This document shows positions 1 through 1,582 of a DNA stretch of 1,582 nucleotides, in pieces. The position numbers were made by a program, and so were the translations under genes. Position 1 is the stretch's first letter. Each line of letters starts with the position of its first letter. This DNA is from Naegleria gruberi. Its lineage: Eukaryota. The notes under the pieces were generated by a model that searched no databases, was not told where the DNA came from, and saw only the letters and a program-made list of their open reading frames with translations. Location: the NCBI GenBank assembly GCA_000004985.1, contig GG739374.1; one strand, written 5' to 3'.

Positions 1-183
1 TATTTTGTGATGATGATGAAGGGGATTGCTTTGTATGACTAGTATCCTCAAATGAAGTATCATCATATGGATTCCAAAACCTCCTTCCTCTTCTTCTTCT
101 TCGTCGGCTTCCTCCTCTTCCACGTCTCCAATTCTATCTTCCTCCTCTTCTTGGTAGGTTTGGTTGTAGCGCCCAAAAGACAT
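1..183 (-). CDS. 5' end of a protein-coding gene, with the start codon at 181-183 (plus-strand CAT) and the remainder continuing past the left window edge. The N-terminus reads MSFGRYNQTYQEEEEDRIGDVEEEEADEEEEEEGGFGIHMMILHLRILVIQSNPLHHHHKI..., an acidic Glu-rich protein of unknown family. An intron may begin after the E-tract, at a possible donor AG|GTTTTG near 79-87 on the minus strand.
   Basis: This is the first in-frame ATG after an upstream TAA, which lies 5 codons upstream. Its context is excellent and A-rich: AAAAAAATGTCT. The frame is open for all 61 codons to the window edge. E2F and CCAAT promoter elements lie 43-66 bp upstream on the same strand. The reading frame is ambiguous, because the GAA/GAG polypurine tract is open in all three frames. 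The track's ORF 63..266(-) is the +1 frame, a K/R-rich product that would have to contain the E2F sites inside coding sequence and has a poor ATG context (C at -3). I therefore prefer the E-rich frame. Confidence 0.45.
   Translation of the reverse strand, partial: MSFGRYNQTYQEEEEDRIGDVEEEEADEEEEEEGGFGIHMMILHLRILVIQSNPLHHHHKI
81..152. repeat. Polypyrimidine/polypurine tract about 72 nt long and ~90% pyrimidine on the plus strand. It is made of CTT/CCT triplet-like units and contains a 13-nt direct repeat CTTCCTCCTCTTC at 108-120 and again at 138-150. It encodes the Glu-rich repeats EEEE(A)D on the minus strand.
   Basis: This is directly visible: CTCCTTCCTCTTCTTCTTCTTC...CTTCCTCCTCTTC...CTTCCTCCTCTTCTTGG. 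The 13-mer recurs with a 30-nt (10-codon) period. Confidence 0.85.
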
Positions 184-224
184 TTTTTTAAATTTGTTTT
201 AAAAACTGAATGGAAATGTAAATT

Positions 225-250
225 ATTGGCGCCAAACTTTTCCCGCCAAC
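225..250 (-). promoter_or_regulatory. Composite cell-cycle promoter module with two adjacent E2F consensus sites and an overlapping CCAAT box. The first site is TTTGGCGC on the minus strand (229-236), inside the perfect 10-bp palindrome TTGGCGCCAA (226-235). The second is TTTCCCGCC on the plus strand (239-247). The CCAAT is on the minus strand (ATTGG at 225-229). The module lies 43-66 bp upstream of the minus-strand ATG at 183.
   Basis: Both sites match the E2F consensus TTTSSCGC exactly. The palindromic TTTGGCGCCAAA-type arrangement resembles the overlapping inverted E2F sites of the mammalian DHFR promoter, and the plant E2F sites reported in RNR, PCNA and MCM promoters are of the TTTCCCGC type. 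E2F-site positioning is typically close to the transcription start site. The GC-rich 8-mers stand out in ~70% AT sequence. Confidence 0.45.
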
Positions 251-394: not shown

Positions 395-833
395 TTAAAA
401 AGAGAACTATTGAACTTTGAAGATAGTGATATTTCCATTGCATAATTTTGTTCTGCATATTCTTCTTGAATTTTCAATTCATATGAGTTAGTCTCGTATT
501 CTTCCTCTGTACTCAACCATCTCAAAGATAACAATGTTTACCAAATATCCATTAAATTCAATTATGGAGATAGAATCTTAATGGAAATGATGGAAAACGA
601 AATTTGGGCTTTGGAAACAAGTACAAGTTACTAGTTCAATCAAATGAAACACCAAACCTGATGGGTTTTAGTGTTGAATATAGGAGAGGAAGAAACTATT
701 TTAATATCCATAATGAAACCGATATTTACAATTTTCAAAGTTGCTATTGGTGATTGGGATTTTTTTGTTGATTAACCCGTACGAGCTTTTTCTTTCTCAC
801 TCTGGATGTGATCTTTAAAATGAGCATATTTTC

Positions 834-1250: not shown

Positions 1251-1582
1251 TTAATTAATAATACCAACATCATCATCATCACCACATGGTAATACTTCAT
1301 CACATTCTTCATTGAGTTCAATATTGTTATCAATATTCATATTATTATTATTATTAACAATACCATCCGTACTGATATCAGTATTTTGTTCAGCATCTTG
1401 CAATAAGACAGTTGAATTAGAATCCTCATCAACAAGTACCACTTTGGCTCTAGCTGTGGTACCATCATCAACAGCCTTTCTATTGAAGAGTTTACTCTTT
1501 CTATCTTTGAAATTCTTGAGTCTGTGTTTGGATTCTTTCATGAGTGGACAGATTCTTGTCATGATTAAATCCAAAGCTCTGA
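1251..1582 (-). CDS. 3'-terminal coding segment (possibly the last exon) of a gene whose 5' part lies beyond the right window edge. The stop codon TAA is at 1251-1253. The in-frame translation is ...RALDLIMTRICPLMKESKHRLKNFKDRKSKLFNRKAVDDGTTARAKVVLVDEDSNSTVLLQDAEQNTDISTDGIVNNNNNMNIDNNIELNEECDEVLPCGDDDDVGIIN*. The product is unknown: a basic putative NLS patch followed by an acidic, Asn-rich low-complexity C-terminal tail.
   Basis: The reading frame is open for 110 codons on the minus strand and runs off the window edge. The track's M at 1574 is really a TTG codon, and the frame stays open upstream (A, R, ...). Codon usage is strongly biased and coherent: all 5 Arg are AGA, all 4 Gly are GGT, Asp is GAT, and Pro is CCA, unlike the flanking non-coding DNA. 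The (GAT)4 run at 1269-1280 and the (AAT)5 run at 1341-1355 sit in frame as poly-D and poly-N. An AATAAA on the minus strand (plus-strand TTTATT at 1176-1181) lies ~70 nt downstream of the stop. Confidence 0.65.
   Translation of the reverse strand, partial: RALDLIMTRICPLMKESKHRLKNFKDRKSKLFNRKAVDDGTTARAKVVLVDEDSNSTVLLQDAEQNTDISTDGIVNNNNNMNIDNNIELNEECDEVLPCGDDDDVGIIN

Follow-up and report, generated by a model that had tools for sequence, protein, structure and literature searches.

Positions 225–249 of a small orphan scaffold in the Naegleria gruberi NEG-M genome assembly are, in the reading that we favour and think fairly probable, a composite cis-element, namely a side-by-side pair of near-optimal E2F sites within the proximal promoter of a gene not annotated in this amoeboflagellate. 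The scaffold, 1582 bp long and 31.7% GC, was analysed in its entirety and is termed ‘the window’ in what follows; with its identification as N. gruberi, the dictyostelid, yeast and plant origins that had been considered on the basis of composition were rejected. Sequence, the factor repertoire of the organism and comparative usage of the same words all lend the E2F reading good support. A paired E2F element is of an ordinary, well-known kind, though one that we did not find described in this lineage, and our search of the literature yielded no description of E2F cis-elements in Naegleria. Work on such elements has, as far as we are aware, been confined almost wholly to animals and plants, and we know of no RB or E2F genetics for Naegleria; the E2F/DP/RB set itself is traced by inference to the last eukaryotic common ancestor.

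What do the letters hold? Direct reading of the plus strand at 225–250 gives ATTGGCGCCAAACTTTTCCCGCCAAC. The first-pass annotation had pointed to two E2F consensus octamers and a palindrome in this stretch, and all three are indeed there: TTTGGCGC at 229–236 on the minus strand (site 1) and TTTCCCGC at 239–246 on the plus strand (site 2, where the 9-mer TTTCCCGCC occupies 239–247, plus strand), each an exact match to TTTSSCGC and the two being the sole matches in the window, together with the perfect 10-bp palindrome TTGGCGCCAA at 226–235. Both octamers are parts of 12-mers of the full TTTSSCGSSAAA type, which adjoin one another with their centres approximately 13 bp apart. Site 1, the near-palindromic ATTGGCGCCAAA at 225–236 (minus), reads TTTGGCGCCAAT on the gene strand and is located at −53 to −42 from the ATG discussed below, and site 2, TTTTCCCGCCAA at 238–249 (plus), reads TTGGCGGGAAAA on the gene strand, at −66 to −55. 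Is such a pair to be expected in DNA of this composition? The two TTTSSCGC matches, 3 bp apart, are to be set against 0.02 expected; none of 200 dinucleotide shuffles of the window had two or more; and 200,000 windows simulated with a first-order Markov model had a mean of 0.0135 matches, with a probability of 1e-4 for two or more and of 3e-5 per window for two within 20 bp. GCGC occurs at two places in the window, 229 and 169 (169–172), and the latter, the sole one outside the module, is contained in an E2F-like near-site, TTTGGGCGC (168–176, minus strand), which spans codons 2–5 of the ORF just past its ATG, has one extra G and is not a consensus match.

The position given for the module, just upstream of a minus-strand ATG at 183, was right too. 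It is at −42 to −67 from that ATG, which begins an unannotated, frameshifted ORF with N. gruberi-like codon usage, and the intervening 184–224 (minus strand) is A/T-rich and, as read from its sequence, may be a leader or core-promoter stretch. How would such a putative promoter function? We infer that the N. gruberi E2F/DP heterodimer would bind each site via conserved RRxYD recognition helices, and that DEL, the two-domain family member that resembles E2F7/8, may bind the sites too. Recruitment of RB to E2F would keep the promoter repressed outside a proliferative or S-phase time window, release of RB would permit activation, and minus-strand transcription would then enter the acidic ORF at 183, heading leftwards.

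That ORF, putative gene A, takes up 1–183 of the minus strand and runs off the window. Its ATG is the first past the in-frame stop and is in the A-rich context AAAAAAATGTC, and on translation the frame that it opens, starting MSFGRYNQTYQEEEEDRIGDVEEEEADEEEEEEGG, continues to the window end. Is it coding? With a table of 5,030 codons from the N. gruberi-like genes of contigs L001 and L005–L007, the codon log-odds of the ATG frame over 82–183 are +11.0 bits, the best of the six frames, whereas over 1–81 the in-frame continuation has −12.2 bits and it is the shifted frame, FWNPYDDTSFEDTSHTKQSPSSSSQN, that is best, with +6.7. Judged by these frame-by-frame values the ORF looks coding but with a 1-bp frameshift near 76–84. 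At the junction, again on the minus strand, codon usage favours …EEEGG and then FWNPYDDTSFEDTS… in the next frame, and lengthening the T4 run at 76–79 by one T, to T5, would rejoin the frames to give …EEEGGFWNPYDD…. The frameshift may stem from a sequencing error, the scaffold being small and its end close by, or it may signify a pseudogene; likewise the acidic ORF as a whole could be a pseudogene or within low-quality sequence. Its acidic N-terminus had earlier been taken as the mark of a chromatin or replication protein, for which there is now little encouragement, as the ORF is without homologue, Pfam hit or annotation and its frame breaks at 76–84. Word-indexed protein searches, including one with a frameshift-corrected hybrid of gene A, returned no homologue, with the proviso that so Glu-rich a sequence (poly-E) may have overwhelmed the word index; Pfam yielded nothing significant for six peptides of the window, and an exact look-up of ten small ORFs from its left half found none of them among 15 billion proteins. 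A plus-strand gene ending at 38 (…FCDDDEGDCFV*) was also considered and was rejected on codon log-odds.

Could this be genuine E2F-type sequence at a locus that is nevertheless no working promoter, the scaffold being an assembly leftover (a chimeric clone, a collapsed haplotype or a decaying duplicate) and the acidic ORF either a pseudogene or a purine-rich tract that codes for nothing? The orphan status and small size of the scaffold lean in that direction, and so does its relationship to ENA contig L001, the single related contig that reaches this region. From 760 to 1582 the window is 99.3% identical to L001 over 824 bp, the 759 bp to the left of 760 have no similarity to it, and in L001 another gene (MQYEDDDPMSEALS…; start MQYEDDDPMSEALSLNDPSSEVE) begins exactly where the homology ends (window 755–790 compared with L001 4480–4579); structural variation, a second haplotype or chimerism of a clone could each account for the scaffold. 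To this can be added that the ORF is frameshifted, has neither annotation nor homologue nor an exact match in the 15 billion proteins, and contains a GAA/GAG tract that is open in several frames. However, over 500 bp separate the module from the break at 760, which therefore leaves the relation of module to ATG (42–67 bp) unaffected and has not parted the two. Also, the N. gruberi codon log-odds are positive for each half of the ORF, on one strand only, and the single missing T in the T4 run, whose restoration would mend the frame, is typical of read-end error. An assembly leftover with no promoter activity is an explanation that we take seriously while thinking it unlikely.

An E2F promoter presupposes E2F, and does N. 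gruberi possess it? Sequences termed NgruE2F, NgruDP, NgruDEL and NgruRB are given in the source data of Medina et al. 2016 (PMC4862756 supplements). The first three of these supplement sequences are exactly the NCBI N. gruberi entries EFC36120.1 (E2F), EFC41842.1 (DP) and EFC40606.1 (DEL). By Pfam, NgruE2F has E2F_TDP and E2F_CC-MB domains and NgruDP has DP and E2F_TDP domains, the E2F_TDP scores being 1e-28 and 2e-18 respectively; DEL, with a double E2F_TDP, is a two-domain protein of the E2F7/8-like kind, and NgruRB, the pocket protein through which cell-cycle regulation would be conferred, has both RB_A (6e-45) and RB_B (2e-24). The DNA-binding domain of NgruE2F matches the crystallised human E2F4 domain (1CF7) with E = 7e-25 and has all 24 letters of its recognition helix in common with human E2F4. 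In the recognition of DNA by E2F the RRxYD helix contacts the CGCG core, and given this and the identity of the helices, NgruE2F is expected to have the same sequence specificity. The module had initially been taken to point to an organism with E2F/DP, and so not to a budding yeast, and this taxonomic deduction was right: E2F and DP are encoded by N. gruberi with an intact winged-helix DNA-binding domain (RRxYD), and DEL and RB are present in addition.

Where else does the composite occur? A scan of JGI metagenome contigs with the 22-mer TTGGCGCCAAACTTTTCCCGCC gave matches at one locus, represented on two contigs (L012 7570–7594, the same as L013 963–987), and prokaryotic genomes amounting to 596 Gbp, like the viral contigs, gave 0 matches. 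On BLAST comparison of the window with this locus the identity is exactly 25 bp, 225–249, with nothing beyond. In L012 an intron-rich MCM2 gene has the module 93–117 bp upstream of its ATG. The exons of this gene encode MCM2_N (7e-15), MCM_N, MCM_OB and the MCM P-loop (3e-44), and MCM2 belongs to the canonical targets of E2F. Going by the Arabidopsis MCM2 N-terminus, the protein presumably resembles the flowering-plant one, and the locus looks like DNA of a host plant present in an environmental sample. Since the flanks are unrelated, the match between window and MCM2 is best seen as convergence on two near-optimal E2F sites and neither as homology nor as contamination. As judged from the domains of the downstream gene, the locus shows the exact composite in apparent use at a genuine E2F-target promoter. 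The wider resemblance to plant E2F-target promoters, those of MCM, PCNA and RNR genes, extends to the individual words: both 9-mers of the window, TTTGGCGCC and TTTCCCGCC, are Arabidopsis E2F words, with TTTGGCGCC being the cell-cycle-specific one (PMC1779545). In plant MCM2, as in the window, the full 25-bp composite is near the start codon. In contrast to the plant promoters, the window is from Heterolobosea, within Discoba, and the gene downstream of its module is no recognisable replication gene; also, the module is oriented oppositely, relative to its own gene, from the one at plant MCM2. A plus-strand gene to the right of the module, the side on which MCM2 is found in the plant locus, was considered and rejected, there being no ORF and codon scores being negative.

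Closer to home, comparison was possible with contigs of ENA assembly ERZ929261, which are 97–99% identical to N. gruberi. Five loci totalling 20.8 kb (gene B, DEL, CDKAc, CycB1 and CDKAa), a small and author-selected set, were used, and L003 and L004, unrelated TARA ocean contigs, were left out. In these 20.8 kb there are two matches only to TTTSSCGC, both of them TTTGGCGCC on the coding strand and upstream of a canonical cell-cycle gene: one at −46 to −38 from the annotated start of DEL (L005 3725–3733) and the other at −255 to −247 from the start of CDKAc (L006 976–984). DEL has in addition GGCGGGAA, shared with site 2 of the window, at −161 to −154 (L005 3610–3617), its single occurrence in the 20.8 kb. 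CDKAc has the E2F-like word ATTCGCGC at −122 (L006 1109–1116), and CDKAa has at −97 (L014 24–31) the one-mismatch site TTGGCGCG, which holds the sole GCGC of that contig. GGCGCC is absent from the five loci. Upstream regions of N. gruberi DEL (EFC40606.1) and CDK (EFC39002.1, EFC50050.1) thus have in common with the window the species and coding-strand TTTGGCGCC, and for DEL the distance of that word from the ATG is nearly equal to the −53 to −45 of the window. In the DEL and CDK promoters, however, two words are at least 100 bp apart, or there is one alone, while in the window they adjoin. The promoters carrying E2F words come from three genes of a tiny comparison set, and within this small, selected sample the word pattern is what an E2F code would be predicted to give. 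As background only, the CDKAa orthologue of N. fowleri was taken with 21-kb stretches of the DNA around it, which have 0–2 consensus words each, with none in the CDKAa promoter. In animals E2F7/8, and in plants DEL1, are themselves E2F targets, and N. gruberi DEL, a member of the E2F family, may likewise be one. A further ATG, in frame with DEL, precedes the annotated start by 102 bp (L005 3669–3771), and as its use would put TTTGGCGCC inside coding sequence, the true DEL start codon is uncertain.

How does the element compare with well-studied ones? The mammalian DHFR-type overlapping inverted E2F site is TTTCGCGCCAAA, and ATTGGCGCCAAA shares its 12-bp inverted-repeat layout, having one exact half-site and one with a single mismatch. 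The differences are that the central bases of ATTGGCGCCAAA are GG/CC instead of CG/CG and that the window has a second full site adjoining. Among protists, Dictyostelium also has E2F, DP and a single RB orthologue, RblA, which represses S-phase and mitotic genes, and one RblA-repressed Dictyostelium transposon carries a consensus E2F element (PMC3386910); the organism there is amoebozoan whereas here it is heterolobosean. Taken together, the words at this locus, those at DEL and CDK, and a recognition helix identical to the human one suggest that the E2F binding code may be conserved in Discoba. If it is, the E2F regulon of Naegleria would be predictable from sequence, a gain for work on an organism that lacks routine genetics and also for work on its pathogenic relative N. 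fowleri. The locus itself is of small value, one more putative E2F target.

A much bolder thought is that the adjoining double site with its fixed 13-bp spacing of centres is a piece of ancient promoter grammar, kept base for base between the heterolobosean element and that of plant MCM2 for two E2F-family complexes to dock side by side, these being either two E2F/DP dimers or E2F/DP plus DEL, and that it marks an unannotated, lineage-specific proliferation gene of Naegleria. Were it true, the E2F regulon of a deep-branching eukaryote could be read directly from sequence. We regard it as doubtful.

Granted near-optimal E2F words, is it E2F that would use them? Site 1 includes a perfect 10-bp palindrome, and many factor families use GC-rich words in AT-rich promoters, so a different protein, such as a dimer on TTGGCGCCAA or a zinc-finger GC-box binder, might be the one bound, with the likeness to E2F sites incidental. 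However, both words are the exact E2F consensus, the recognition helix of NgruE2F does not differ from that of human E2F4, the same words are upstream of the N. gruberi DEL and CDK genes, and the identical composite is in an MCM2 promoter; another factor seems improbable. That the two words are a functionless chance co-occurrence is, in our estimation, very improbable, since even with the motif picked after the sequence had been seen, and many windows and motifs thereby implicitly screened, the pair has a probability of only about 3e-5 per window, GCGC is very rare in the genome with the exact consensus matches found being all in 5′ regions, and the 25-mer recurs solely in the MCM2 promoter.

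The element on which the initial reading of the module has to be revised is the CCAAT pentamer. It was said to abut the E2F palindrome and to provide an NF-Y partner for E2F. Actually, the pentamer (minus strand, 229–225) shares two bases with GGCGCC and, overlapping the core in this way, forms the outer arm of ATTGGCGCCAAA, the 12-bp site, instead of a separate box. Nor is its presence unusual, as the window has 7 CCAAT where 4.8 are expected and at least as many turn up in 41 of 200 shuffles, i.e., it is at chance level. A module with E2F and NF-Y bound side by side would have in its favour that CCAAT is present on the gene strand, and that GCGCCAAT recurs both within the module of plant MCM2 and ahead of the CDKAa gene of N. 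gruberi. However, with the CCAAT frequency being that of chance, a 2-bp overlap with the GGCGCC core that makes simultaneous occupancy by E2F and NF-Y unlikely, DEL and CDKAc sites that are without CCAAT, and a literature search that gave nothing relevant on NF-Y in Naegleria, we give such joint occupancy very little credence. Two other classes of cell-cycle element were considered and rejected. In a CDE/CHR (DREAM) element a CHR, TTYGAA, would follow the E2F-like CDE within a few bases, but the nearest TTYGAA is at 416–421 and the TTYGAA count is at chance level. Fungal SBF/MBF elements (SCB CRCGAAA, MCB ACGCGT) have a G1/S role in common with E2F elements, and there is partial overlap between their motifs and the E2F consensus (Medina et al. 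2016, PMC4862756), but neither MCB nor SCB words are in the window, and the organism is a heterolobosean and no fungus.

The rest of the window merits brief description. At its right-hand side the ORF at 1251–1580 on the minus strand was found, by exhaustive HMMER search, to be 100% identical to N. gruberi EFC35762.1; the word-indexed protein search found nothing for it. The annotated models there are EFC35315.1 (NAEGRDRAFT_77031), with 103 aa, and EFC35762.1, with 301 aa, and both are C-terminal parts of an uninterrupted ORF of 522 aa (P0005) at L001 2449–4017, from which the annotated models of this gene (window 1251–1582) look truncated. The P0005 protein has no Pfam domain. The window is without tRNAs or meaningful repeats, and Rfam gave C/D-box snoRNA-like matches at 1003–1057 and 1197–1306 that, with E of 0.3–0.9 and far below gathering scores, are probably due to chance. 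Between genes, approximately 380 bp downstream of the stop codon of the right-hand gene, there is at 834–868 an inverted repeat, TTACTCAC … GTGAGTAA, with 8-bp arms and a 19-nt loop, and the stretch is identical in L001.
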